A stretch of DNA of 50,739 nucleotides from positions 1-50,739 of IMG/VR virus record IMGVR_UViG_3300034065_000046. The stretch is one strand, 5' to 3'. This DNA is from a virus. Lineage: Duplodnaviria; Caudoviricetes. Shown piece by piece: positions 1 through 50,739 of this stretch. A model generated the notes under the pieces. That model worked only from the letters and a program-made list of their open reading frames with translations. It did not search any database and was not told the DNA's origin. The position numbers were made by a program, and so were the translations under genes. Position 1 is the first letter of the stretch. Each line of letters begins with the position of its first letter.

Positions 1-127
1 TCCATTCAAGGAAGTTACAGAGGGATTTAATCGGGGAGCGCAAGATGCCGGTTATAGCTTAAAGCGAGATTTTGACGAGATTGGCAAGAATATAAGTAGT
101 ACCATTGGTACAGCAATTGCTGCATCG
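1..127. repeat. 127-nt terminal direct repeat (copy 1); circular-assembly overlap
   Basis: 1-127 is identical to 50613-50739; the ORF continues in frame across the join. Confidence 0.95.
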
Positions 128-1570
128 GTAGGAGTATCAGCCCTACGCTATTTTAATAACCAAGCTAATGCAATTATGGGACAAGCCAGCGCAGCCGGAC
201 ATTTTACCTCAGAAGCAATACAGGGTAATGCCAATACTGCATTTGGTGGATTTACCAGCCAGCTATTTGATGTAGAACGGCAACGGCAGGAAGCTAATAC
301 TAATGCACTTTATGAGGGTGTAGGTGGTGCAGTCGGTGGTGTCGGCGGTGCGGTACTTGGTGGAGTAGCGGAATTTCTATCAGAGGGCAAAATAGGCAGT
401 GTCGGCAAATGGGGCGCAGCAGGAGCATCGTTAGGTGTGGGTGTGGGCGATTATGAAGCGGCTAATCTTAAGAATCAATATACCGAGCAATTATTACTAG
501 CTGGTGCTGGACTGTCAAAACGTAAAGCGGAAGCGTCTGTAAGTGAATGGCAAACTGGATTTGGGCGTTGGGGTATGAAAATGACTGACTCCGTAATTGT
601 ACCCAAAGTTATTGCAGGCGACCACGCTATAACTGCACCGCTCCAGAAAGAATTTGAAACCAGATATGGCGGCAGTCAAAACTATAATGCTATCCTGAAT
701 CACATTGTACCTTATCTTAATAACAGCCCGTTAGATAGTAAGAATGGCGACCTTAACCAAGTATCACAGCAGTTTATGCGAGCCGGATTTTCGGTGCAGG
801 AGTTTGGTACATTAACCAGACAATCGGCGCAATATACGGCTTTAACCGGCAAGCAATTGCAGGATTTTAGCACTGATATATACCAATCTAGGCAAAAGTT
901 TGGTAATAGTTATGGTGTTGAGCAAGTGCAGCAATCTTTGAATTTGCAAATGATGGGGTTTGATAAAGACCAGTCTGAGCATTTAGCTAATCAGGCTATA
1001 TATAATCCTAGTATATTATCTGGAGCGCAGCAATTAACTAACCAATCATATAGCGATTACTATAGAGGTAAAGCCATGGCTAATATAATTGGATTTGACC
1101 CTAACTTAGCCAAAGCTACAGGTGGGGCTTCAATATCTGAAAGTGTCAAAGCATTATATAGAAAAGATATTGCAGCAGTAGCTAGAGGTGAATCTCCTAG
1201 TCAAAGATTATTATTATTAGACCAGTCCGGTCAAAATGCTAGGTCAAATATGATTTCATATTTACAAAAACAAGTAAAAGAATTACATGGCGAGGGCGAC
1301 AAAGATTTTGTAGGTGCGCCAACTCCAACCGGATTAATTACCAAGAATAACGCAGCACAGGAAAATGCAGAATCAGCCGGTACATTACAAAACTTATTAG
1401 CTAAAGTTGAAAGTATGACTATTACGGCTACAAATGTAACCTTGATTAACCAGAATGGTTTAGGTAAAGAAATGCACCCAAAACTAAATGAAGCAGGGCA
1501 ACATTTTAATAATTCAGGGTATTACCCACCAAGTCCGGTCGCTACTGGAAAATCACCAGCAAAGCATTAG
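2..1570 (+). CDS. Tail tape measure protein, 3' part (full ORF 50269..50612 + 1..1570, 637 aa)
   Basis: Frame is open from ATG 50269 across the junction into the 176..1570 ORF; Gly/Ala-rich helical content; follows tube and chaperone genes. Confidence 0.8.
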   Translation, partial: PFKEVTEGFNRGAQDAGYSLKRDFDEIGKNISSTIGTAIAASVGVSALRYFNNQANAIMGQASAAGHFTSEAIQGNANTAFGGFTSQLFDVERQRQEANTNALYEGVGGAVGGVGGAVLGGVAEFLSEGKIGSVGKWGAAGASLGVGVGDYEAANLKNQYTEQLLLAGAGLSKRKAEASVSEWQTGFGRWGMKMTDSVIVPKVIAGDHAITAPLQKEFETRYGGSQNYNAILNHIVPYLNNSPLDSKNGDLNQVSQQFMRAGFSVQEFGTLTRQSAQYTALTGKQLQDFSTDIYQSRQKFGNSYGVEQVQQSLNLQMMGFDKDQSEHLANQAIYNPSILSGAQQLTNQSYSDYYRGKAMANIIGFDPNLAKATGGASISESVKALYRKDIAAVARGESPSQRLLLLDQSGQNARSNMISYLQKQVKELHGEGDKDFVGAPTPTGLITKNNAAQENAESAGTLQNLLAKVESMTITATNVTLINQNGLGKEMHPKLNEAGQHFNNSGYYPPSPVATGKSPAKH

Positions 1571-1611
1571 GCGGTAAAAATGCCGCACTGGTTGAACCAG
1601 CAATAACAAGA

Positions 1612-1977
1612 GTGGCATCACAGGTAGGTGTTGATAGAAACGTTTTAGAGCGATTAGTATATAATGAATCGCGTGGTAATCCGGCAATAGGTTGGAACAA
1701 GGGCGGCAAACATTATAGCGCAGGGATAGCACAAGTTAGTGCAGGGGTTTGGAGAACATATAGTCGGCAGCCTTACGCTGAAGCATTAGACCCAAAATAT
1801 TTTGAAGAGAATTTAACAGTGGCAGCGCAATATTTAAAACATAATTATCAATTATATGGTACATGGCGTTTAGCGTTAGCGGCATATAACGAGGGCGAAA
1901 CTGTTATGAATAAAGTTTTAGCTGGTAAACGTCAATTAAGCCCTATTACCCAACGATATATAGCTGGTGTGCAATGA
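1612..1977 (+). CDS. Lytic transglycosylase (SLT/GH23) domain; frame open from 1513, possibly fused to the tape measure by -1 frameshift
   Basis: Catalytic YNES, AGIAQV and LAAYNEG motifs; first SLT helix (EPAITRVASQVGVD) begins upstream of the GTG. Confidence 0.85.
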   Translation: MASQVGVDRNVLERLVYNESRGNPAIGWNKGGKHYSAGIAQVSAGVWRTYSRQPYAEALDPKYFEENLTVAAQYLKHNYQLYGTWRLALAAYNEGETVMNKVLAGKRQLSPITQRYIAGVQ

Positions 1978-3338
1978 GAAAATTAGTAATTAATATATCA
2001 GCCAGACCGGAAACAGACGATAATAGTTACGGGTTTAGTTCAATTGATGTATTAGTACCGAGTATTTATCAATTCCTTAATCTGGTATTAAACTATAGTG
2101 TTACCAGTTCTAGTATTACATCTATGCTAATTCTTGGTATGTCCTCACCTATATCATCGGATAATGTATTACGTAGCGGACAGCCGGTAGTTATTACCGA
2201 TAATGGCGTTACAGTATTTCAAGGTGTGATACTTACCCCAAGTTATAAAATGTTACCAATTGACGAGAGCGGGCAAGGTGGTTTATATTTATTTGCTACA
2301 CTAGCACCGAGTATTTATCAATTTACCATTACCCCACTTATTTTTGATTCAGCGCAAGCAAAGCAAATTTCGACTGTAACAGGGCTAGATGTATCAGCTA
2401 TACTTGTGGGTGGAGTAACGCAGTCTATCGCTACGCAATCCATGCTAGATTACATGGTAACTAATATGGACTATAATGCTATTTATGGTAAAAGTATAAG
2501 TGCATCAAATCTAGGTGATAATATATATGTTATGACCGCTGCGGGTGAGTATCGAGATACTACAATCCGGTCATCTATTGATTATTATAACTGTGTATTT
2601 TATCAGCAAGAAGATGGTACAATTATTATCCGACAATTAGACCCTAGTATAGAAAGCCCATTTGATATAGACCTACAAAACTCATACTTAGGCACATTAG
2701 CCGGTAGTGATGTAACTCCAGTAGCTCCATTACTAGCCTACGAATATTGCGAGAATGGTTATAGTACCCCATCAGTAGTCAGTAACTACGCTATGTTATC
2801 ACCAGATACCGGTATTGGTGCAGTAGCACAGCAATGCGTTTTATCCTATGCTCCTAACCCTGAGTTTTATCCAAGAATAGGTCAATTACTCAAAAGCGGT
2901 TGGTTTACCGGACAGATAGGCGTTACACAGATTAATGATAATATTGTAAAGAATCCAACTACAGCGCAAGCGTTAAAGACATTTCAGAGCGAGCAAGACC
3001 AGTACATGATTACTACGCAGGCTACAGGAGTCAAAGACCAATTTTATGCAGCCTATCAAGCTCTATTGACTGCCAAACAACTAGGTGCGGCACTTACCGG
3101 ATACTCAAGTATTGATGGTACTATAAGTTTAGATGATGTAAACTTAGCCGGAGTAGATTTAAGTAGTGTTGTAGGTACTTGTCTACAGATACAAAATTGC
3201 GATATGACTGCCGGACTGATTGCAACTTGCAGCCGGAATTATAGTATTAATGGTAGTTTCTTAACCTTTAGTATAGTAGCATTGGGTAGTTATACGGGAC
3301 TATGGGCTAATTCTAATTTTACACCGGAGTCAGCATGA
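1974..3338 (+). CDS. Baseplate hub protein (Mu gp44/P2 gpD-like)
   Basis: Position after tape measure, 454 aa, beta-rich, FYQQEDGTIII segment. Confidence 0.6.
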   Translation: MRKLVINISARPETDDNSYGFSSIDVLVPSIYQFLNLVLNYSVTSSSITSMLILGMSSPISSDNVLRSGQPVVITDNGVTVFQGVILTPSYKMLPIDESGQGGLYLFATLAPSIYQFTITPLIFDSAQAKQISTVTGLDVSAILVGGVTQSIATQSMLDYMVTNMDYNAIYGKSISASNLGDNIYVMTAAGEYRDTTIRSSIDYYNCVFYQQEDGTIIIRQLDPSIESPFDIDLQNSYLGTLAGSDVTPVAPLLAYEYCENGYSTPSVVSNYAMLSPDTGIGAVAQQCVLSYAPNPEFYPRIGQLLKSGWFTGQIGVTQINDNIVKNPTTAQALKTFQSEQDQYMITTQATGVKDQFYAAYQALLTAKQLGAALTGYSSIDGTISLDDVNLAGVDLSSVVGTCLQIQNCDMTAGLIATCSRNYSINGSFLTFSIVALGSYTGLWANSNFTPESA

Positions 3339-3697
3339 TAGTATCTAATTCACCTCTTATTAAGAATGGCAGTTTGGCATTAAATGCGAATGGTGATTTA
3401 CTAGCTGCGCCAGATATTGAAACACAGATGACAGTAGCCGTAAGCGGGTATAATTGCTTATATGATGTAAACCTGAATAGTTTATTAATACCATATTTAG
3501 AGGGTATCCCTGTAGGTGGTTTGAATCGTGGAGCGATAATAAACATTGTAAAACAGGCATATACGTACATGGTGAGTCAAAAGATTATCAGTAATTTACA
3601 AATCTCTATTGGAGCGAGTACGATTTCAGCAGTACAGATTAACATAAATGCTACCGATATAAACGGCAATGAAATATTTTTAAACTGGATTAATTAA
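3335..3697 (+). CDS. Baseplate wedge/sheath initiator (gp25/Mu gp46-like)
   Basis: 120 aa, LALNANGDL N-terminus, directly upstream of baseplate J. Confidence 0.6.
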   Translation: MIVSNSPLIKNGSLALNANGDLLAAPDIETQMTVAVSGYNCLYDVNLNSLLIPYLEGIPVGGLNRGAIINIVKQAYTYMVSQKIISNLQISIGASTISAVQININATDINGNEIFLNWIN

Positions 3698-4947
3698 TGC
3701 AAACTATAACATCATTACAACAAAGTTATTTATCTTATTTGCAAGCGCAAAATTCAGCTATTAATGCTTATGCGCCTAATACTTATTGGGATATTATTAG
3801 TGGTGCTGAAGCATCTTCATTTTTAGATTTATACTACAACTTGCAAATCGTTACTAATTCTATCTATCCACAAAATGCAGTAGGTAATCAGGTAGATTTA
3901 TGGTTATATCGTTTAGGATTACCGGCACGGGGTGGTATGACATTCGGCACTATTGTAGCGGTAGTATCTTCCTCGACGCCTGTAACAATACCGATTAATA
4001 CCGTATTTACCGATTCAGTTACAAGTAATTCATACCAAACATTACAAGCATTTACAGTAGCAAATGGTAGCTCACCGATTACACTATATGCTACAGTAGC
4101 CGGTAATAACTATATTGAGCCAGCCGGTAATTCATTAACTGGGGGTATATATACAATAGAGGTAGTATCATCGACCAATGGACAGCTTGCAGAATCAGAC
4201 CAGTCATGTATTAACCGTATTTTAATAGCTACACAAGCACCAATTGCCGGAGCTAGACAGACAGACTATTTTGTATATGCACAACAGGCAAGCTCACAAG
4301 TAACATGGGTAATTCCTATACCATCATTTGTAACTACAAATGGTGTAGGTATTTTAGGGGTATTCCCATTGGTTGGTACTCTTATTACTGAGTATCAACT
4401 TAATCAAGGTTTATTACCAGCCACGACATTTATTGGATATAGTAGGCAAGCAGATACATCAGTATTAACCGCAGTAACAAATTATATTCAATCATTGAAA
4501 CTGGTGGGATTATCGGTAATTGTAGGTAATTGCCTGACGTACCTAGCAACCACATCAATGTCTACCTTAACTGTTACAGTATCATTAGTAAGTGGTTATA
4601 GTCTATCAACGGTATTAAATGTAGAATCCCAAGATATAAATAATAACCCGATAACTGTGCAATTGACAATTTCTCAATTAGTGCAGCGTGAAGTACGCAG
4701 GGCTATTTGTAATCAAAACTACGGAGCTACATTAATTGGTTCACAGAATACCATAACCCTTGATAGTATTATATATGAGTTGAATATACAACTATCTGCG
4801 GTAAACGGGCAAATAGCTCAAGTATTAACTAATATAGCTTTATCCGGTAGTGATATAGCCGTACCAAATTATAATAATTCTTCGGTGCAAGTTGATTATG
4901 TTTATGATATAACTGCCTATAGTAATATAATTGTAGCATTACCATGA
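3697..4947 (+). CDS. Baseplate J-like wedge protein
   Basis: PQNAVGNQVDLW...GLPAR, GQLAESD...RI and GARQTDY patterns typical of Baseplate_J. Confidence 0.85.
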   Translation: MQTITSLQQSYLSYLQAQNSAINAYAPNTYWDIISGAEASSFLDLYYNLQIVTNSIYPQNAVGNQVDLWLYRLGLPARGGMTFGTIVAVVSSSTPVTIPINTVFTDSVTSNSYQTLQAFTVANGSSPITLYATVAGNNYIEPAGNSLTGGIYTIEVVSSTNGQLAESDQSCINRILIATQAPIAGARQTDYFVYAQQASSQVTWVIPIPSFVTTNGVGILGVFPLVGTLITEYQLNQGLLPATTFIGYSRQADTSVLTAVTNYIQSLKLVGLSVIVGNCLTYLATTSMSTLTVTVSLVSGYSLSTVLNVESQDINNNPITVQLTISQLVQREVRRAICNQNYGATLIGSQNTITLDSIIYELNIQLSAVNGQIAQVLTNIALSGSDIAVPNYNNSSVQVDYVYDITAYSNIIVALP

Positions 4948-4960
4948 TAAGGAAAGCATA

Positions 4961-6058
4961 ATGCCTATTATAAATGTGTTACCTACAGTAAGTAGTTTAA
5001 CGCAAATATATTTTACAGTAATATTAAGTAATTATTCTTTGAATCAAGCTACGATTACTAATATACAGGCACTATATGGCAACGTAGGTATAGTAGGTAC
5101 TGGATTTACAGCTTATGATGATACTCCAATAGCATTAGCGGTAACAGCAGAATTAAGCGGTGTAGAATATTTAGGCATACTTTACACTAAGGCGGTTTAT
5201 GGTAATATTTTACCGGATAATTTTAGTAGATTAGTACAGAAAATACCATTAGGTATATTCTCCGGTGGAATAGTACCCGCTACATTTGTTAATGGGGTGC
5301 GTACTAATACTGGTACAATAATTGGTAATGATTTTAAAGCTCGTTCACAAATGATGGATGATTACTATACTCAATACTTTTTTACAGTTAATCAGGTATG
5401 GAGTAATGCATACTCACCAGCATTGGAATTTGAGTATAACGGTACGGTAGGATTATTAAGTACCTCAACATATGTAAATGAGTTATTTCAATTAATAGCG
5501 ACCTTACCGACAGTTTATCTAAACGTTTATGATTTAGAGTTATATATAAGTAAGTACATTTATTATAGATTAGGTACTGTATCGGCGGTATATATAAATG
5601 ACCATGTAGAAGATATAGAATTACTTTGGAATCTTGGGATAGCGGGATATACGGAATTAGGCAGTACAACGGTATTAGGTGAGGGCGATACTCCAGTAGT
5701 TAGTAATTTAGATTGGACTGTATTCAACGCCAGTGCATTTACTGCACAATTTAAAACCGAAATAACAAATTTAATAATTAGGATTAGTCGTGCAGACATT
5801 GGTAATACGGTTACATTTTCTAACCAAGTAACACCCACGAGCTTGCCAAGTGTAGGCGAATGGAATTTAGGGATAGCCGGATATACTGAATTAGATACTA
5901 CCACAATATTAGGTGATACACCTCCCGCACCAGATACGTTTATACTTATTGGAGCTACTTACTTTTCAGACCCACGGTTACTATATGATAAATGCTTAGA
6001 ATACATCGGGGATTCAGAATTCCCCTTAAATGTAATCGGCTACCAAAAAATATTTTAG
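4961..6058 (+). CDS. Baseplate wedge protein (gpI/Mu gp48 position)
   Basis: Between baseplate J and tail fibre; duplicated WNLGIAGYTEL motif. Confidence 0.55.
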   Translation: MPIINVLPTVSSLTQIYFTVILSNYSLNQATITNIQALYGNVGIVGTGFTAYDDTPIALAVTAELSGVEYLGILYTKAVYGNILPDNFSRLVQKIPLGIFSGGIVPATFVNGVRTNTGTIIGNDFKARSQMMDDYYTQYFFTVNQVWSNAYSPALEFEYNGTVGLLSTSTYVNELFQLIATLPTVYLNVYDLELYISKYIYYRLGTVSAVYINDHVEDIELLWNLGIAGYTELGSTTVLGEGDTPVVSNLDWTVFNASAFTAQFKTEITNLIIRISRADIGNTVTFSNQVTPTSLPSVGEWNLGIAGYTELDTTTILGDTPPAPDTFILIGATYFSDPRLLYDKCLEYIGDSEFPLNVIGYQKIF

Positions 6059-6068
6059 GAGAATATAA

Positions 6069-8096
6069 ATGGCAAATTTTGACGTACAGACATTTTATAC
6101 AGGACAGGTAGTATCAGAGCAAAACATGAATGCTACCTATAACGGTAAAGACCAGAATCTAACAGCTTACTTCCCGACTAATCCATGTATTTGTAATGGT
6201 ATTACTATATCACAAGCAACTACTACCAATGTAATAACGTTTGGTGCTGGCGTATTTAGGTTTAAAGACCAAGTAAATGCTAACTCAGGAGCGCAGACAC
6301 AAGCTACATTTGGTAATTATGCTGGTGGAGTAGTTACGGTTACGGCAGCAAGCGGTTCAGGTTCACAGCTTTACATCGTAGCTATTTTGACACAGACCGT
6401 AGTAGATTCAAACAACATTACTAATACAGTAGCAATATCACCCACATCACTTACACTAGCGCAGATAGCAGCAGAGTCAAACCCTAATGCATATTTGATA
6501 ATCAGTGCTATAACTAATACTGCCGGAGTATATACTTTATTTTATGATTCCAACTGCGTATTAAATTACGACACCTCAGCAGTAACGGCTACGGCGATAA
6601 CCGTAACTAATACAGCTTCAGGTACTTATGATATACCTCTTATTACAGGTTCATCTACGGGTAATTATAGTTTATATGTAGCGTCTGGAATGACATTCAA
6701 TACTGCTACATCGGCTTTATCAGCTACAACATTTATAGGCGCACTCACTGGTGCATCAACACAAGTAGGTACAACAAATAATACGTCTAATGCATTTTTT
6801 TATATGCCATTTGTTGCTGCGAGTACAACCGGCAATCAAGCATTACAAGTGAGTGTTGCATTTAGACACGACCCAAATATAGGGTATAGTGATATTACTG
6901 GTTCTGCCGGTGGATTTGCAGTTATAAATAATAACGCTACACCCGCAGCAGGCTATTTATCAGTTATAAGTAATCCGGCAAAGGCTTTAATTAGCACAAA
7001 TCAGTTAGGAATAATTAACTTTGAGGGCGCATATAATAATGCCAATGGCTTAAATATAGGGGCTAGAATAATTGCATCAGCTACTCAGACATATTCCATT
7101 ACCGCTGCTGGTACTAATCTACAGTTCTATACCACACCTAATAATAGCATTACCAATACGCTTGCATTAACTCTAGGTCAAGACCAATCAGCTACTTTTG
7201 CTAACAATGTAACGGCAACTGCCTATTATGGAGATGGTTCAAATTTAACCGGAATTAGCGGAATAGCCTTTACTCAGCAAGGTAGATTAACCGATACTAC
7301 TGCTACGCCTAATGGCGGTAATAGCTCTAGCGGTTCAACTACTTTATATTTTACGCCAAGCTATAATGGTAATCAAATCACACTGTATAATGGTACAGCA
7401 TGGGTAACGCAAACATTTGCCGAGATAAATCTAGCTGTAAATACATTAACCTCAGGTGATGTTTATGATGTCTATATCACTTCTGCAAGTTCTACGACTG
7501 TAACAATGTCCGTAGTTGCTTGGTCAGGTAATACACCGCCAACACGTGATACCCAAAATGGTAGATTAGTCAAACACAGTACGCCGACAGCATTATTGGT
7601 AGGTACGATTTATACTCCAGATGGCACTCATGTATATAGCTGGAATGGGCAAAGATATATTAATAATTTTTATAATCAAATTGAATTACCTTTATTTGCG
7701 AATGATACTACGGCATCATGGACTTATGCGAGTACATCACAAAGGGCGGCAAACGGTAATACAACATATGGGCAAGGTAGATTTGGTGCTTTATTTGACC
7801 CATCAAGTTGTAATAGTGTTAATTTAACAAATTTTCAATCCGCAGGTACAGGCACTGGTACAAATCAGTATTACTTTATTCTGGGAATAGATAGCACTAC
7901 CGCATTAACTGCGGCCAGCGTTTTACAAATGTCGTCTACTGGATATACAAGTAGTTCATTTACTTATAATGCTACAGCATTGGTAGGATTTCATTATTTC
8001 CAAAGGTGTGAAACATCCAATACTGGAGGTGGTCAATTCTTTGGTTCTAATTCTGGCGGGGTATGGTCAGGTTTATTTGCAACAATTTTAGGATAA
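6069..8096 (+). CDS. Tail fibre protein 1
   Basis: 675 aa, Thr/Ser/Gly/Asn-rich; after baseplate, before fibre chaperone. Confidence 0.8.
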   Translation: MANFDVQTFYTGQVVSEQNMNATYNGKDQNLTAYFPTNPCICNGITISQATTTNVITFGAGVFRFKDQVNANSGAQTQATFGNYAGGVVTVTAASGSGSQLYIVAILTQTVVDSNNITNTVAISPTSLTLAQIAAESNPNAYLIISAITNTAGVYTLFYDSNCVLNYDTSAVTATAITVTNTASGTYDIPLITGSSTGNYSLYVASGMTFNTATSALSATTFIGALTGASTQVGTTNNTSNAFFYMPFVAASTTGNQALQVSVAFRHDPNIGYSDITGSAGGFAVINNNATPAAGYLSVISNPAKALISTNQLGIINFEGAYNNANGLNIGARIIASATQTYSITAAGTNLQFYTTPNNSITNTLALTLGQDQSATFANNVTATAYYGDGSNLTGISGIAFTQQGRLTDTTATPNGGNSSSGSTTLYFTPSYNGNQITLYNGTAWVTQTFAEINLAVNTLTSGDVYDVYITSASSTTVTMSVVAWSGNTPPTRDTQNGRLVKHSTPTALLVGTIYTPDGTHVYSWNGQRYINNFYNQIELPLFANDTTASWTYASTSQRAANGNTTYGQGRFGALFDPSSCNSVNLTNFQSAGTGTGTNQYYFILGIDSTTALTAASVLQMSSTGYTSSSFTYNATALVGFHYFQRCETSNTGGGQFFGSNSGGVWSGLFATILG

Positions 8097-14167: not shown

Positions 14168-14698
14168 ATGTTAGATACTAATTTAATCAAGATATTAGCC
14201 TTATTAGTAACTATTGGTACTTATACGCTCATGGTCTATGAGAAAGGGTGTAGAGATACAGAGAATACCGAGCAATTAAAAGCTAAAACACTACAACTTG
14301 CCAATGATGAAAAAATCATGGAGATGCAATCAGATGCAATCACTCAATTAAATTATGCACTTAGTTTATCAGAATCAACTAATCAATCAGTAATGGAGGA
14401 ACGCGATGCAGTTACGAAAGAATATAATTACCAAAATGATGTTATCACGATGTATCAAAAAAAACTTAATACTACTTGCAATCCTGCCACTATGGAGTTG
14501 CGCCTTATTCAAAAGCTCACCGAGCCAACCAGTAGTGCAACAATGCTCCAAGCCAGTACCACTACCAGCAGCATTACAAATACGGATAGAGTCGCCACCA
14601 ATGCCGGAATATTACGTTATATCTTCGCTCTCCGAGAGTGGGGTATAAATTGTATGAATGAACATAATACAACTATTGATTATATGGGAAAAAGATAA
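14168..14698 (+). CDS. Inner-membrane spanin (Rz-like)
   Basis: N-terminal TM, coiled coil, C-terminal Cys; contains an embedded lipoprotein gene. Confidence 0.8.
   Translation: MLDTNLIKILALLVTIGTYTLMVYEKGCRDTENTEQLKAKTLQLANDEKIMEMQSDAITQLNYALSLSESTNQSVMEERDAVTKEYNYQNDVITMYQKKLNTTCNPATMELRLIQKLTEPTSSATMLQASTTTSSITNTDRVATNAGILRYIFALREWGINCMNEHNTTIDYMGKR
14436..14648 (+). CDS. Outer-membrane spanin (Rz1-like lipoprotein), embedded in Rz in the +1 frame
   Basis: KKNLILLAILPLWSC lipobox followed by a Pro-rich mature region. Confidence 0.8.
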   Translation: MMLSRCIKKNLILLAILPLWSCALFKSSPSQPVVQQCSKPVPLPAALQIRIESPPMPEYYVISSLSESGV

Positions 14699-14937
14699 TG
14701 AAAACATTAAAAGAACACAACGAGGAATTATTAAGAAAAGATAGAGCTGACGTAGCTTGTGATAAATGTGGCGAGGAAATGTATTATAGTAATTCAAATA
14801 TTCATATTCAGCATATTATGGATAAAACAGTAAAAGTTATGTGTCATAAGTGTAACTACACTGGATTAAAAATAAAGCCACCATTTTTATCATTAGCTTC
14901 GGATTCAAAAAGTATTGCAGAAAGTATCACATGCTAG
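14698..14937 (+). CDS. Zinc-ribbon protein
   Basis: CDKC...CHKC. Confidence 0.6.
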   Translation: MKTLKEHNEELLRKDRADVACDKCGEEMYYSNSNIHIQHIMDKTVKVMCHKCNYTGLKIKPPFLSLASDSKSIAESITC

Positions 14938-31409: not shown

Positions 31410-32435
31410 ATGATAAAAGAACAAGTTATAACAGACAAGTATAGTATTTACAATGCTGATTGCTTTGATGTGGTTACACACTTACCAGACGAATCAATTG
31501 ATTTGGTTATTTATTCCCCACCTTTTGCGGGATTGTTTAATTACAGTTCATCACCTAAAGATATGTCAAATTGTGAAACTAAGGAGCAATTTTTAGAACA
31601 TTATGATTATTTGGTTAAGCAATTAGCTAGAGTTACAAAGTCCGGTCGCATTAATGCAGTACATTGTACCGATGTATTTGATAATACTTGCCGATTATGG
31701 GATTTTCCACATGAGATTATACAGATACATTTGAAGTATGGATTTGAATACCGGAATCGGATTACAATTTGGAAAGAACCGCTTAAAGTTCGTATGCGTA
31801 CAATGGTGCAATCATTAATGCATAAATTCATAGTTGAGGATAGCACTAAGTGTTTTACAGCGATGCCGGATTATATTTTAATCTTTACTAAAAAAGGTGA
31901 AAACGCTGTTCCTGTAACACATGAACATGGATTTAAGCGATATGCTGGGGATACTCCAATTTTACCAAATATATTACGGGCGTTTAATAATGCCAATGAA
32001 ACTAATTTTGGTGAAGATGAATTGTGGGAATATTTACAAAATAACTTTTACGATAGCACCGACCCACGAAGTAATAAGCTAAGTCATTATATATGGCAGC
32101 GGTATGCTAGTTCTGTATGGGATGACATTAGAATTGATAATGTATTACCATTTAGAGATAGCAAAGAGGAAGATGATGAAAAACACGTACACCCTCTACA
32201 GTTAGACGTAATAGACCGCTTAGTTGATTTATATAGCAATCCTAATGAAGTTGTGCTAACCCCATTTATGGGAGTGGGTAGCGAGGTTTATAGTCCTGTA
32301 TCAATGGGTCGTAAGGGTATCGGTATTGAATTGAAAGACAGCTATTTTAAACAATCAAAAATTAACTTATCTATGGTAGAATCCAGATTTACGGATGAGT
32401 TGGTACAAAATAAATTGTTTACGGATATAGAATAA
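31410..32435 (+). CDS. Amino DNA methyltransferase (N4-C/N6-A, beta-class motif order)
   Basis: Catalytic SPPF precedes SAM-binding TPFMGVGS; GIGIELK. Confidence 0.9.
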   Translation: MIKEQVITDKYSIYNADCFDVVTHLPDESIDLVIYSPPFAGLFNYSSSPKDMSNCETKEQFLEHYDYLVKQLARVTKSGRINAVHCTDVFDNTCRLWDFPHEIIQIHLKYGFEYRNRITIWKEPLKVRMRTMVQSLMHKFIVEDSTKCFTAMPDYILIFTKKGENAVPVTHEHGFKRYAGDTPILPNILRAFNNANETNFGEDELWEYLQNNFYDSTDPRSNKLSHYIWQRYASSVWDDIRIDNVLPFRDSKEEDDEKHVHPLQLDVIDRLVDLYSNPNEVVLTPFMGVGSEVYSPVSMGRKGIGIELKDSYFKQSKINLSMVESRFTDELVQNKLFTDIE

Positions 32436-32683
32436 TGGATAAATTGTTTATTAATCAGTTGATTGACTCTCATTTGGATGTTGTAACCAAGACTAGGAGT
32501 TATGAGAATTGTGCTAATCCTAAAGCTGTATTGCAAATTCGTAATGGGCTTATTGTAGGTGAGTATCCAAGTTTAAGCAAAGCAGCAAAAGAAACGGGAA
32601 TATGTATTTCCTCAATATCAAAATGCATAAGAAAATATACATTTTACAAGAATACAGGCGATTGTAGCTGGAAACTAAAGTAA
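32435..32683 (+). CDS. Stand-alone NUMOD1-domain protein
   Basis: KAVLQ...EYPSLSKAAKETGI..SSISKC. Confidence 0.7.
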   Translation: MDKLFINQLIDSHLDVVTKTRSYENCANPKAVLQIRNGLIVGEYPSLSKAAKETGICISSISKCIRKYTFYKNTGDCSWKLK

Positions 32684-47056: not shown

Positions 47057-48919
47057 ATGACAAGTTTCGTGAGATTTTTAGATATTAACGTTGAGCTTAC
47101 CCCAAATAGCACAACCGGAAATACGACTAAACAGGTATTATTACTCGGTCAGCGATTGACAGATAGTGGTACATTTTACCCAACTACAAACGGGTTTACA
47201 CAGCCAAATTTCTATGAGCCTATACAGTTACCATCATTCCCAAGCGGAGGTGCTGCATTGCAGTATTTAGGTAACTACGGATTGAAATATACTTTAGGTA
47301 TTAATTTTACTGAAACATACCCCGCACCAACTGCGGTAGTATCAGTTAATGGCTTAACTACACTTACATGGTCAAGCGTACCTAATAACTTTAGCCAATT
47401 AACCGATTTTAACTTAACCGGTTCATTAGCGCAAACCTCTCCTAGTTCTGTGAGTGGTAATGTATATTCAGCAGCTATTATCGCTGGTGTAGCTACTATG
47501 GTACTATATGGAATTGTAGCAATAGCTACTGCCGGTAGTTCTGGTGGTACACTAACTCTTACAGGTTTGAATAATGTTGATTATCCAGACCCCGTAGCGA
47601 CTGACCCTATTTGCTTGATGGCTTGGGATTTCTACCAAAGTGCATTATCTGCTTTTGCTTCACCATTTGGTGCGCCAAGTGCATTTATATCTATCCTAGA
47701 TGATAGAACATCAACTATAAATCCAGTAGATACAGCAATTGTATTAGGCGACCCATCAGCGGTAACTACAGGTACAACCTCTACATTGACATTTGCTTCA
47801 GATACCGCCGGTGTAGGCTACTTACCTACTACCACACTTGGAAACTCGATTGTAACGCAGGCTACAAGTGATGCAACAGGCGTTTATGCTGGATATGTGA
47901 TAAGCGGTAGTAATATCATAATTACAGTTACTGGAGTTACAGGCGGTACATTTGTAACTGGTGATAGCGTAAGTATAGCCCTTGATGATGCAGTAAATGC
48001 ATTTGATTACTTGGTAGGTACAAATCTCTATGCTTCAGTGCTGCAATTCCCTATTGCTACATCAGGTAATATTACCAGTCAAGATTCATTCTTTAATGCA
48101 ATAACTGCATATAACGAAGCTAATACAGTATTGAATAACTGGTATTTGAATTATGGTATTGCCGGAAATATAACTGTTCTACCAAATGCGGCAAGTGGTT
48201 TACCTACACCTAATACCCAAGAAAATATCTTAGTTACTTATCCATATATTGCCAAATTCGGTGATATACCATACGATAATGCAGCAGGAACGGTGGGCGG
48301 CGGTAGAGTAGCTTCTGCGGTAGCATATATGTTAGCTAATGGCGATACTCCATTCCCGCCTTTAATGACTGCTACAATTAACCATTTACCGGTATCCAGT
48401 GTGGCATCAACTACAAGTTATTCAGCGGCACAGAATGGTACTGGAGATATAGCAGTAAATCAAGGTTGGCTACCTCTAGCACCAAACAATTTAGGTGTTG
48501 TTACGTTCTTGGAGTCAAATACTACTTTGATAACTATACCTAATACCACTACTCCAGATATAGAGTTTAGATATACTCATATTTGGGATTGTGTACGTTG
48601 GGTTAAATATCAAGTAGCACAACTTTATAATACTATTTCAGTATTGCCATTCAATCAAGGTAGTGCGCTTATATCACCAGCATTTACCAGACAGTTTACA
48701 CAGGGTATTATCGGTATATTGAATCAAGGGCAATTACTCGGTGTGGTACAGAATGTAGCATTGTATGAAAATCTGGTAAGTGTAGTAGAAGATACGCAGA
48801 ATCCTAATCAGGTTGATGCTTATATACCTTGCCAAATGATACCTCAGCTTAATGGTGCAAATGTTTTAATCAACGTATTCAGTGCGCTTTATACGTTCCC
48901 TAATAGTCAAGGAGCTTAA
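47057..48919 (+). CDS. Contractile tail sheath protein
   Basis: 620 aa; VLLLGQ N-terminus, QGWLPL, NPNQVDAYIP C-terminus; followed by the tube gene. Confidence 0.85.
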   Translation: MTSFVRFLDINVELTPNSTTGNTTKQVLLLGQRLTDSGTFYPTTNGFTQPNFYEPIQLPSFPSGGAALQYLGNYGLKYTLGINFTETYPAPTAVVSVNGLTTLTWSSVPNNFSQLTDFNLTGSLAQTSPSSVSGNVYSAAIIAGVATMVLYGIVAIATAGSSGGTLTLTGLNNVDYPDPVATDPICLMAWDFYQSALSAFASPFGAPSAFISILDDRTSTINPVDTAIVLGDPSAVTTGTTSTLTFASDTAGVGYLPTTTLGNSIVTQATSDATGVYAGYVISGSNIIITVTGVTGGTFVTGDSVSIALDDAVNAFDYLVGTNLYASVLQFPIATSGNITSQDSFFNAITAYNEANTVLNNWYLNYGIAGNITVLPNAASGLPTPNTQENILVTYPYIAKFGDIPYDNAAGTVGGGRVASAVAYMLANGDTPFPPLMTATINHLPVSSVASTTSYSAAQNGTGDIAVNQGWLPLAPNNLGVVTFLESNTTLITIPNTTTPDIEFRYTHIWDCVRWVKYQVAQLYNTISVLPFNQGSALISPAFTRQFTQGIIGILNQGQLLGVVQNVALYENLVSVVEDTQNPNQVDAYIPCQMIPQLNGANVLINVFSALYTFPNSQGA

Positions 48920-48924
48920 TAATC

Positions 48925-49350
48925 ATGGCAGCAACTCAATTTTTCTATGACCGCGTGGAAATATATGTAGATGGCGTACAATATTTACCTAATGGGCAAA
49001 TACGTAATTTCAGAATGACCGGTGTTTATACCAGTACACAACAAATGGGCTTCACGCCTACTGGCGCATCTGCCGGTAGTATTGTGGGTGGTAGTAAAGT
49101 AGACCCTGTATCATGGGGCGAGTATTTACCTACAGCAGCCGAATATCAGAATTGGCGCACATTCCTTATTGCTAATCCAAATGTAACGGTAGTAGTTATT
49201 CCAATATCTTTAGCTACAGGCGTACAAGTAGCTCCGAGCTTTAGCATTACTGGACTTAACTGTACTAGCCAAGAGGTTACTGCACCCGGCGAATCTGAAG
49301 CCTGTGGGCGTATTTGCACATTTAATGCACAATTATCAAGCAATATGTAA
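48925..49350 (+). CDS. Tail tube protein
   Basis: 141 aa, beta-rich, directly after the sheath gene. Confidence 0.75.
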   Translation: MAATQFFYDRVEIYVDGVQYLPNGQIRNFRMTGVYTSTQQMGFTPTGASAGSIVGGSKVDPVSWGEYLPTAAEYQNWRTFLIANPNVTVVVIPISLATGVQVAPSFSITGLNCTSQEVTAPGESEACGRICTFNAQLSSNM

Positions 49351-49361
49351 GGAGAATTACA

Positions 49362-49604
49362 ATGTCAAATCAAAGTTATAATAACGTATTGACCCCAATG
49401 GGTACATGGTCAGGTACAACAACCTATAAATCACAAGTAGTATATGGTGGAGTAGCAAACTCTCCTATGTATATATCATGCCCGACTGTTACCTATTCTG
49501 GTCATGTATATTACGCTACTGGCTTTACATCATCAGGAACGGCAAAGCAACCTACATATGGCACTACTCCAGATATGGATACCGGTTGGCAGGAGCTAAT
49601 TTAA
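49362..49604 (+). CDS. Small CBM5/12-like protein
   Basis: GTWSGTTTY...VTYSGHVYY...TP...W. Confidence 0.55.
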   Translation: MSNQSYNNVLTPMGTWSGTTTYKSQVVYGGVANSPMYISCPTVTYSGHVYYATGFTSSGTAKQPTYGTTPDMDTGWQELI

Positions 49605-49605
49605 T

Positions 49606-50229
49606 ATGAGTAAGAGAGATATTATCGAAGCAGCTAATGCAATTCATAAAGAACCATTAGCCAAATTAAAAGCAGATACATTAAACAATGCCAGCGGTAC
49701 AAACCATAGGGCATTAATGCAATATAATGCTATGCTAGATAATATTACAATGGGTGCTGGTACTATCACTACTATAGACTGTGCCGGTATCGATTGGAAG
49801 CTCCGAATATTGACCAGTGATGAATATATCGCTATTAGACTTGATGTGGTGAAAATAGCTAAAGAAAAAGAATGTTTTGATGATTGGTACTTGTATTACC
49901 TCGAAGCATTAAAAACTTTAACTATGGCATGTACGCCATCACCATTCAAGACTGAGGGCGAAACGCTATTTGTCGAAGAAGATTTAAAACTCTTGGCATA
50001 TGATATATTAATAGAGTTATTCAAGCGTTATGTTTTCTTTGTTCATATGGCTACTAAAAAAGCTGAAGAATTTAGCGAAGAAGAATTACAGGCATTAATG
50101 AGTATCGTAAGAAAAAAGCCAGAAGTATTGATGGAATTAGACAGAAGACAATCTGTCTATCTGAACCGATACTTACTAAGCTACTGTGTGAATCTGGAGA
50201 AGATGCTAAAACCAGAGCAAACCAGTTAA
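49606..50229 (+). CDS. Tail assembly chaperone; candidate -1 frameshift at 50112-50118
   Basis: Between tube and tape measure; A_AAA_AAG slippery site; -1 frame open to 50267. Confidence 0.75.
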   Translation: MSKRDIIEAANAIHKEPLAKLKADTLNNASGTNHRALMQYNAMLDNITMGAGTITTIDCAGIDWKLRILTSDEYIAIRLDVVKIAKEKECFDDWYLYYLEALKTLTMACTPSPFKTEGETLFVEEDLKLLAYDILIELFKRYVFFVHMATKKAEEFSEEELQALMSIVRKKPEVLMELDRRQSVYLNRYLLSYCVNLEKMLKPEQTS

Positions 50230-50268: not shown

Positions 50269-50739
50269 ATGTCAGATATTAATATTAAGTTTAGCGATGA
50301 TGAAACTGGTAATATTGATAATACATCCGGTCAGCATTTATCAGATATTTTAAACAAACTCACTAATGCAGTTGATAATCTAGCCAAAGCTAGTAAGAGT
50401 GCATCTACTGACTCAACAGCCAAACCAAAACCTACGACAGAAGCCGCAAAAGATAAAGCCGTAGCATTGCCTACGTTTACCAAGTTAAACACTGAATTAG
50501 ATAAAATGGCTATATCAGCCAAAAAACTTAATACAGCATTTGATAAATTAGTAAAATCTAGCGACAAACCCCGTGATACCGAACCATTATTTAATTCAGA
50601 ACGCTCCAGTAATCCATTCAAGGAAGTTACAGAGGGATTTAATCGGGGAGCGCAAGATGCCGGTTATAGCTTAAAGCGAGATTTTGACGAGATTGGCAAG
50701 AATATAAGTAGTACCATTGGTACAGCAATTGCTGCATCG
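50269..50739 (+). CDS. Tail tape measure protein, 5' part (continues across the junction)
   Basis: ATG 50269 with GAGGG RBS; no stop before the window end. Confidence 0.8.
   Translation, partial: MSDINIKFSDDETGNIDNTSGQHLSDILNKLTNAVDNLAKASKSASTDSTAKPKPTTEAAKDKAVALPTFTKLNTELDKMAISAKKLNTAFDKLVKSSDKPRDTEPLFNSERSSNPFKEVTEGFNRGAQDAGYSLKRDFDEIGKNISSTIGTAIAAS
50613..50739. repeat. 127-nt terminal direct repeat (copy 2)
   Basis: Identical to 1-127. Confidence 0.95.

Follow-up and report, generated by a model that had tools for sequence, protein, structure and literature searches.

How does a phage produce a lytic transglycosylase domain that is encoded in another frame than the gene it overlaps, and whose first start-type codon falls inside its own first helix? 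This question is raised by the end of the tape measure gene in a virus of the Caudoviricetes, IMG/VR record IMGVR_UViG_3300034065_000046, whose 50,739 nucleotides (positions 1 to 50,739 of the record, hereafter the window) were analysed as a whole. The open reading frame (ORF) that overlaps the 3′ end of this gene carries an SLT lytic transglycosylase domain, and the initial annotation, which was made from the sequence alone, proposed that a −1 frameshift joins the two. Our comparative analyses support that proposal, through the conservation of the arrangement in relatives, the variation of the putative start codon GTG 1612 and the selection that acts on the −1 frame. On this sequence evidence, we consider it very probable that the tape measure gene, through programmed −1 frameshifting at its 3′ end, yields two products, a tape measure protein of 637 amino acids (aa) and a tape measure–SLT form of 773 aa.

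The layout of the two genes, both on the forward strand (+), agrees with what had been annotated. The tape measure gene starts at ATG 50269; its 5′ part (50269..50739, +) enters the terminal repeat and, in the list of ORFs, resumes at window position 2, from where the zero frame continues to the stop codon TAG at 1568-1570 (2..1570, +). The last 42 residues encoded by ORF 50269..50739 are the first 42 residues encoded by ORF 2..1570, and the protein has a length of 637 aa, of which 115 come from the end of the window and 522 from its start. The SLT ORF lies in frame 1, which is −1 relative to the tape measure ORF in frame 2, and is open over 1513..1977 (+). After the proposed shift, it would be read from codon 1564 to the stop codon TGA at 1975-1977, adding 137 codons to the 636 decoded before the slip, and the last 137 residues of the resulting 773 aa fusion would comprise a linker and a complete SLT domain. 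Both product lengths given initially, 637 and about 773 aa, are therefore those that the ORF coordinates yield.

The Pfam family PF01464 matches the translation from 1513 over residues 33-140 with 45.7 bits (cut-off 21.3) and an E value of 5.5e-12; the match begins at profile position 5 of 117 and roughly at GTG 1612, one residue before it. An AlphaFold model of the SLT product, built on 46 sequences (pLDDT 83.5), adopts the all-helical, lysozyme-like fold, and Foldseek matched the whole length of the model to MltF, Slt70, MltE, phi6 P5, the T7 core protein and phiKZ gp144 (TMq 0.6-0.71, probability 1.00, E 1e-3 to 4e-2). The helix formed by residues 26-37 ends at an N-E-S motif (N35 E36 S37), which is invariant in all seven aligned sequences. 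Its Glu, encoded at 1666..1668 (+), is presumably the catalytic residue, as in family 1 lytic transglycosylases.

The same model shows what initiation at GTG 1612 would cost. No start-type codon precedes this one (1612..1614, +) in the −1 frame, and it is read as an internal Val inside helix 1, which consists of residues 8-22 counted from codon 1561. Since GTG 1612 encodes residue 18, a start there would remove two thirds of the helix. The initial annotation had placed the first helix upstream of this codon; the model bears this out for 10 of the 15 residues, the other five being encoded from 1612 on. It had also stated that GTG 1612 lacks a ribosome binding site, and indeed no Shine–Dalgarno (SD)-like core is found at −18..−4, a feature that 33 of the 68 window ORFs possess.

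The signals expected of a frameshift site lie at the tape measure stop. The last codons of the gene are GCA AAG CAT TAG, and, as first annotated, they contain the slip site A_AAG at 1561..1564 (+), where relatives have A_AAG or a full heptamer in the same alignment columns. Of the 68 window ORFs, 3, the tape measure gene included, have a slippery motif at one of the two sense codons nearest the stop. According to the available text of PMC5009743, the minimal −1 motif in E. coli is A_AAG, while A_AAA_AAG, G_GGA_AAG and C_CCA_AAG are highly prone to shifting; a C, above all CC, 3′ of the motif raises shifting. The base in this position is C in the window and CC in two relatives (L001 and L002). 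Folding of 1565-1624 reproduced both of the hairpins noted at the outset: hairpin 1 (1571..1586, +; GCGGUA-AAAA-UGCCGC, with a 6 bp stem and a 4 nt loop) begins 6 nt after A_AAG and is followed by hairpin 2 (1588..1600, +; CUGGU-UGA-ACCAG, with a 5 bp stem and a 3 nt loop). The fold has a minimum free energy of −15.3 kcal/mol (z = −2.13), which 5 of 200 shuffled sequences equalled or bettered, and folds as good were found in 0.9% of 1708 local 45-nt windows taken from the first 12 kb.

Hairpin 1 arises from 12 nt (1571-1582) that are inserted in the window and in none of the relatives; they add four codons, G-G-K-N in the −1 frame, and keep that frame open. Other readings of the elements at the junction were considered and rejected. 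The hairpin is not a transcription terminator, as no T run lies downstream. An SD-like AGGCGG is followed, 5 nt on, by ATG 1580 in the tape measure frame past its stop (1569-1606), and this zero-frame start was discarded since its ORF has only eight codons. The spacing between the junction ATG and the V-E codons described below is 8 nt here, compared with 9 nt in the relatives that have such an ATG, and ATG 1580 is therefore out of the SLT frame. An SD-like stimulator upstream of the slip site was likewise rejected, because it is not conserved as judged by eye.

We identified ten related contigs (L001-L003, L007-L009 and L014-L017, the last four being nearly identical to one another and L007 being an IMG/VR record as well), whose SLT products share 45-70% identity with that of the window; further copies of these contigs (L004-L006, L012, L013, L018 and L020-L027) were not counted again. 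In all ten, the SLT ORF overlaps the tape measure ORF by 4-20 codons in the −1 frame, and a shift-prone motif and a downstream hairpin are also present, so that the conservation which the initial annotation had proposed to look for is present throughout. Counting the window, the motif lies within the overlap in 11 of 11 loci, and it differs between them. The tape measure genes of the window, L001 and L002 end in GCA_AAG, one further codon and the stop. Those of the remaining eight loci end in a heptamer that directly abuts the stop codon TAA: C_CCA_AAC in L003, C_CCA_AAA in L007, A_AAA_AAG in L008 and L009, and G_GGA_AAG in L014-L017. Even the overlaps of L008 and L009, which span only 4 and 5 codons, have the heptamer inside. 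In a DNA alignment of nine sequences, the AAA of all motifs occupies the same three invariant columns, corresponding to 1561-1563 of the window. As a background, 0.72% of 18975 codon positions in long ORFs of these phages carry an in-frame X_XXY_YYZ (Y = A or T) and 0.33% an in-frame A_AAG. What the loci have in common is the function of the slip site, whereas its sequence has diverged.

The eight IMG/VR contigs found with a tape measure profile all belong to the ten relatives; in what was searched, there is therefore no relative that has the tape measure gene and lacks the arrangement. Two further candidates were dropped as unrelated, namely L010, an SLT protein of 647 aa encoded in frame on a GC-rich contig (31% identity), and L019, a metagenome-assembled genome of the Spirochaetales with a 33-residue match to query A3 and an SLT-like frame that is +1 to its neighbour. 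In the genome collection, query A1 gave no match and query A3 gave L019 only. No match to window DNA 1-4000 was found in the phage collection, and no viral locus was retrieved with the C-terminal half of the tape measure protein alone or with P0002 and P0003 as queries. A tblastn search of cultured phages with the SLT product returned only four distant matches, at 33-35% identity, to coliphage DNA transfer/transglycosylase genes.

The relatives also reveal the constraint on the codons that separate the tape measure stop from GTG 1612. Past the tape measure stop lie nine codons of the pattern V-E-x-A-I-S-x-V-A, seven of which precede the codon at GTG 1612, the eighth being the GTG position itself. 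Over these nine codons and nine loci, the differing codon pairs in the −1 frame are 94 synonymous and 143 non-synonymous, compared with 6 and 206, and 5 and 203, in the other two frames, and the Ser of the stretch alternates between AGY and TCN codons. By these sequence comparisons, the stretch upstream of GTG 1612 is under protein-level selection, in the −1 frame only. The GTG position itself reads GTA, GTT, GTT, ATT, GTA, GTG, ATT and ATT in the aligned relatives; it is GTA, GTT or ATT in nine of the ten relatives and GTG in L009 only. Varying among GTG, GTA, GTT and ATT, this position behaves as an ordinary Val/Ile sense codon.

When ATG, GTG and TTG are all considered, 8 of the 10 relatives have no start codon that would give the whole SLT domain. 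The first such codon of the SLT frame lies three codons ahead of the catalytic Glu in L001, past helix 1 in L002, past the catalytic Glu in L003 and L008, and at the end of helix 1 in L014-L017. Only in L007 and L009 does it lie upstream of helix 1, as an ATG that overlaps the tape measure stop (TAATG).

In all loci, a downstream hairpin begins 3-8 nt past the motif, a 3′ stimulatory structure being expected about 5-9 nt from it. Local 45-nt windows fold equally well at a fraction of 0.009 for the window, 0.10 for L001, 0.087 for L002, 0.013 for L003, 0.001 for L007, 0.028 for L008, 0.034 for L009, 0.017 for L014 and 0.034 for L016. L003, L007, L014 and L016 have in common a homologous stem of nine pairs with a loop of 17-21 nt. 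Three of its pairs are kept through compensatory, two-sided changes, which also change the encoded residues and are confined to this one clade.

Taken together, these features would fit the following course of events. Most ribosomes would stop at TAG 1568 and release the 637 aa tape measure protein. Some would be delayed by the hairpin, which meets the mRNA entry channel when AAG at 1562-1564 is being decoded by tRNA-Lys; the tRNA could then re-pair one base back, on AAA at 1561-1563, and decoding in the −1 frame would resume at GCA 1564. In the relatives with a heptamer, both the P-site and the A-site tRNAs would be on the heptamer at the moment of slipping. At the eight loci where the heptamer meets the stop codon, slow termination may add to shifting, according to the 'shifty stop' idea that is said to be that of Weiss et al. 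in 1987.

Several observations weigh against this interpretation, or at least against frameshifting as the only route to the SLT domain. The motif of the window, L001 and L002 is no more than a tetranucleotide, A_AAG, on which shifting is at a relatively low level according to the available text of PMC5009743. The shift-proneness of A_AAG, A_AAA_AAG, G_GGA_AAG and the close variant C_CCA_AAG is described there for E. coli, and the tRNA-Lys of the phage's own host may differ. The hairpins of L001, L002 and L009 are no better than those of shuffled sequences (z = −0.51, +0.76 and −0.15, respectively). As the ten relatives share ancestry, they do not amount to ten independent trials. The tape measure identity of the upstream protein is based on gene order and weak look-alikes, with no family match. 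Finally, the TAATG of L007 and L009 would provide a complete free SLT protein, and 22 of 45 database homologues (E up to 1e-15; half of them compared in an alignment) are called at 125-142 aa, and therefore start at or before helix 1. The other homologues are called at 114-121 aa (10, one of which is the window's own protein), 104-109 aa (6) and 92-94 aa (7). Independent or coupled initiation may therefore operate in about half of the family, and it may coexist with frameshifting.

The last two observations speak for a small, separate SLT protein, which would be made without any frameshift, either by initiation at GTG 1612 or by coupled termination and reinitiation where the tape measure gene stops. 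GTG can serve as a start codon, and stop/start overlaps are common in this genome, as in the ATGA at 1974. Against this stand the eight relatives without a start for the complete domain, above all L003 and L008, whose first start would leave out even the catalytic Glu; the GTG 1612 position, which varies as Val/Ile, lacks an SD and would cut helix 1; and the upstream peptide conserved in the −1 frame. Moreover, four different canonical heptamers abutting the stop would be left unexplained. We regard a separate SLT protein without a frameshift as improbable. Start codons may come and go at positions occupied by Val, Ile or Met, or the free and the fused forms may both be made in the phages that have such starts, and the short homologue calls could in part be artefacts of contig ends.

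The frames could also be fused at the level of the transcript, if RNA polymerase slipped on the A run and produced mRNAs with one A more or fewer. In L008 and L009, the site does contain six consecutive A. Productive transcriptional slippage usually needs runs of about nine, however, and the window, L001 and L002 have AAA only, while L003, L007 and L014-L017 have CCCAAA or GGGAAA; nor would polymerase slippage need a hairpin 6-7 nt downstream. We judge this route very improbable.

The initial annotation had also raised the possibility of a 1-nt assembly error, and contigs from two other samples and studies, which cover 1487-1658 and 1319-1633, show no differences and no gaps at a depth of 2-3; no indel was thus present, and the junction is therefore not an assembly error. 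The check was made on assembled contigs with depths of 2-11; the X6 contigs leave out 1552-1740, and the probable source run covers the whole junction stretch. That one original tape measure–SLT gene was broken in two by a sequencing error or a recent disabling mutation is scarcely credible: one indel would account for a frame difference of 1 nt, and the independent contigs are of low depth, but all 11 loci, which come from different samples and differ in their junction sequences, show the same offset, and no in-frame version was found in the protein collections searched.

None of 496 longer-protein candidates proved to be an in-frame tape measure–SLT fusion among relatives. An exhaustive profile search gave 1605 SLT proteins at E up to 0.001 and eight at E up to 1e-10, and the three closest SLT representatives measure 129, 103 and 54 aa. 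Six homologues of the tape measure protein, of 563-589 aa, all lack an SLT domain. Distant tape measure-like proteins with an in-frame C-terminal SLT domain do exist, as in P0146 (812 aa) and P0093 (657 aa).

What might the phage gain from frameshifting at this site? By analogy with the known organisation of such tails, the long form would be built into the tail as one of the bundled tape measure chains, its enzyme facing the baseplate, and the SLT domain would cut peptidoglycan during infection, as the tape measure leaves the tail. We infer that frameshifting, in place of an in-frame fusion, would set a fixed ratio of long to short forms, with the long form sub-stoichiometric. Furthermore, the ATG of the next gene overlaps the SLT stop (ATGA), and shifted ribosomes may therefore also help to set the output of that probable baseplate gene. 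These considerations lead to a tentative model, to which we give somewhat less than even weight: the frameshift would serve as a dosing device that puts a fixed, small number of SLT domains, for example one per tape measure bundle, in the tail tip, where there would be no room for several globular domains, and that may help to set the output of the next gene. It would represent a second, so far unrecognised class of frameshifting in phage tail gene blocks, one that concerns a virion enzyme and not an assembly chaperone.

If frameshifting is confirmed, the locus would be a natural case in which recoding sets the stoichiometry of a virion enzyme. It would explain why the starts of SLT genes are called inconsistently or in truncated form, as in the 13 of 45 homologues called at 92-109 aa, which have little or nothing ahead of the catalytic Glu. 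It would also supply an annotation rule for joining pairs of tape measure and SLT genes.

The genomic setting is that of a contractile-tailed phage. The genome is complete, with 50739 bases, direct terminal repeats and a completeness rated 100% in the classification of the virus record; its G+C content is 36.5%, and its DNA is present in peat metagenomes of several studies; among the runs listed for the locus, none is of RNA. The tail gene block spans the record ends, joining the end of the window to its start, and runs from the sheath gene through genes for proteins of 141, 80 and 207 aa to the tape measure, SLT, 454 aa, 120 aa and Baseplate_J genes. The sheath protein (47057..48919, 620 aa) was recognised by comparison of an Atlas model with tail sheath clusters (TM by target 0.85-0.88), and the Baseplate_J protein (3697..4947) by Pfam. 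The 454 aa gene (1974..3338, +), whose ATG overlaps the SLT stop as ATGA, is conserved in relatives; its product has no Pfam or PHROG match and, by position only, is probably a baseplate or hub protein. In L001 (3374-3540), in L002 at the same place and in L009 (1075-1290), an extra small conserved ORF that begins M-P-(S/N)-(N/A)-F-I-K and has a strong SD lies between the SLT and 454 aa genes, which overlap as ATGA in the window and in L003.

Neither Pfam nor PHROG gave a match to the 637 aa protein, whose identification as the tape measure protein therefore relies on gene order, a glycine-rich central stretch and language-model look-alikes. Its gene lies between the tube/chaperone genes and the baseplate genes, a position supported by the sheath fold, Baseplate_J and the order of the genes. 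The look-alikes, which serve as a lead only, include tape measure clusters at 0.89-0.90. Among the Pfam and PHROG matches of the window proteins there are no tape measure, tube, chaperone or hub families, and a sequence search of the PDB with the sheath and tube proteins gave nothing useful. Across 47057-50229 and 1974-8096, almost all tail and baseplate proteins lack a Pfam or PHROG match, and the sheath is recognised by predicted structure only. The phage belongs to a poorly charted peat lineage of contractile-tailed phages.

Shift-prone motifs near stop codons were also seen elsewhere in the window. ORF 14168..14698 (176 aa) ends in ATG GGA AAA AGA TAA, with G_GGA_AAA one codon ahead of the stop, and ORF 14698..14937 (79 aa) is −1 to it, its ATG overlapping the stop as TAATG. 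This pair, for which the family searches gave only a weak PHROG match of unknown function, could be a second frameshift pair or a case of plain coupling. In ORF 32435-32683 (82 aa), A_AAG is in the last sense codon.

How, then, does the junction compare with known systems? Frameshifting in tail chaperone genes is textbook knowledge, and tape measure proteins with muralytic domains have been described. No case of a frameshift conditionally appending an enzyme to a tape measure protein came to light in searches of the open full-text literature or in the consulted text of PMC5009743, a large review of recoding, and a precedent may exist elsewhere. In the available text of PMC10274946, tape measure genes appear only among the presumed false positives of a tool.

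The closest parallel is the chaperone frameshift of lambda (G/GT) and P2 (E/E+E′), which likewise yields a short protein and a C-terminally extended one at a fixed ratio; L014-L017 use G_GGA_AAG. The phage Loki chaperone has its heptamer directly at the stop, according to the available text of PMC5313236. The window site differs in that it lies one gene downstream, behind the gene of the 207 aa candidate chaperone and where the tape measure gene ends. What it adds is an enzyme domain, and its products are expected in the virion, whereas gpG and gpGT are not in virions in the account given by the available text of PMC5009743. Its location at the tape measure 3′ end and the enzyme that it appends place the site outside the chaperone class.

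The second parallel is the P1 Sit type, in which a contractile-tailed phage also carries an SLT domain on its tape measure protein. In the 1140 residues of P1 Sit, the domain lies at about residues 750-900, and the part of PMC9024508 consulted notes that some tape measure proteins possess SLT domains. Such domains are encoded in frame and present on every chain, whereas the family described here would mostly reach it by recoding only.

With respect to the signal itself, the A_AAG of IS3-family (IS1222-type) elements and the A_AAA_AAG of dnaX are the same motifs with a 3′ stem-loop stimulator, and in the IS3 family a catalytic domain in the −1 frame is fused to the upstream ORF (PMC5009743, available text). 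Unlike in those elements, no transposase takes part here, and no conserved upstream SD-like stimulator was seen. A minor, longer virion protein made by recoding has counterparts in T7 gene 10A/10B and in Listeria phage PSA, whose capsid and tail proteins are reportedly extended by frameshifting. In neither case is the extension an enzyme, nor is it on a tape measure protein. T7 gene 10 is mentioned among the recoding cases in the available text of PMC5009743. The tape measure–SLT junction would combine the recoding seen in the chaperone genes with the enzyme seen on P1 Sit, and the sequence comparisons support the conditional appending of an enzyme to the tape measure protein by frameshifting as a variant beyond the chaperone class.

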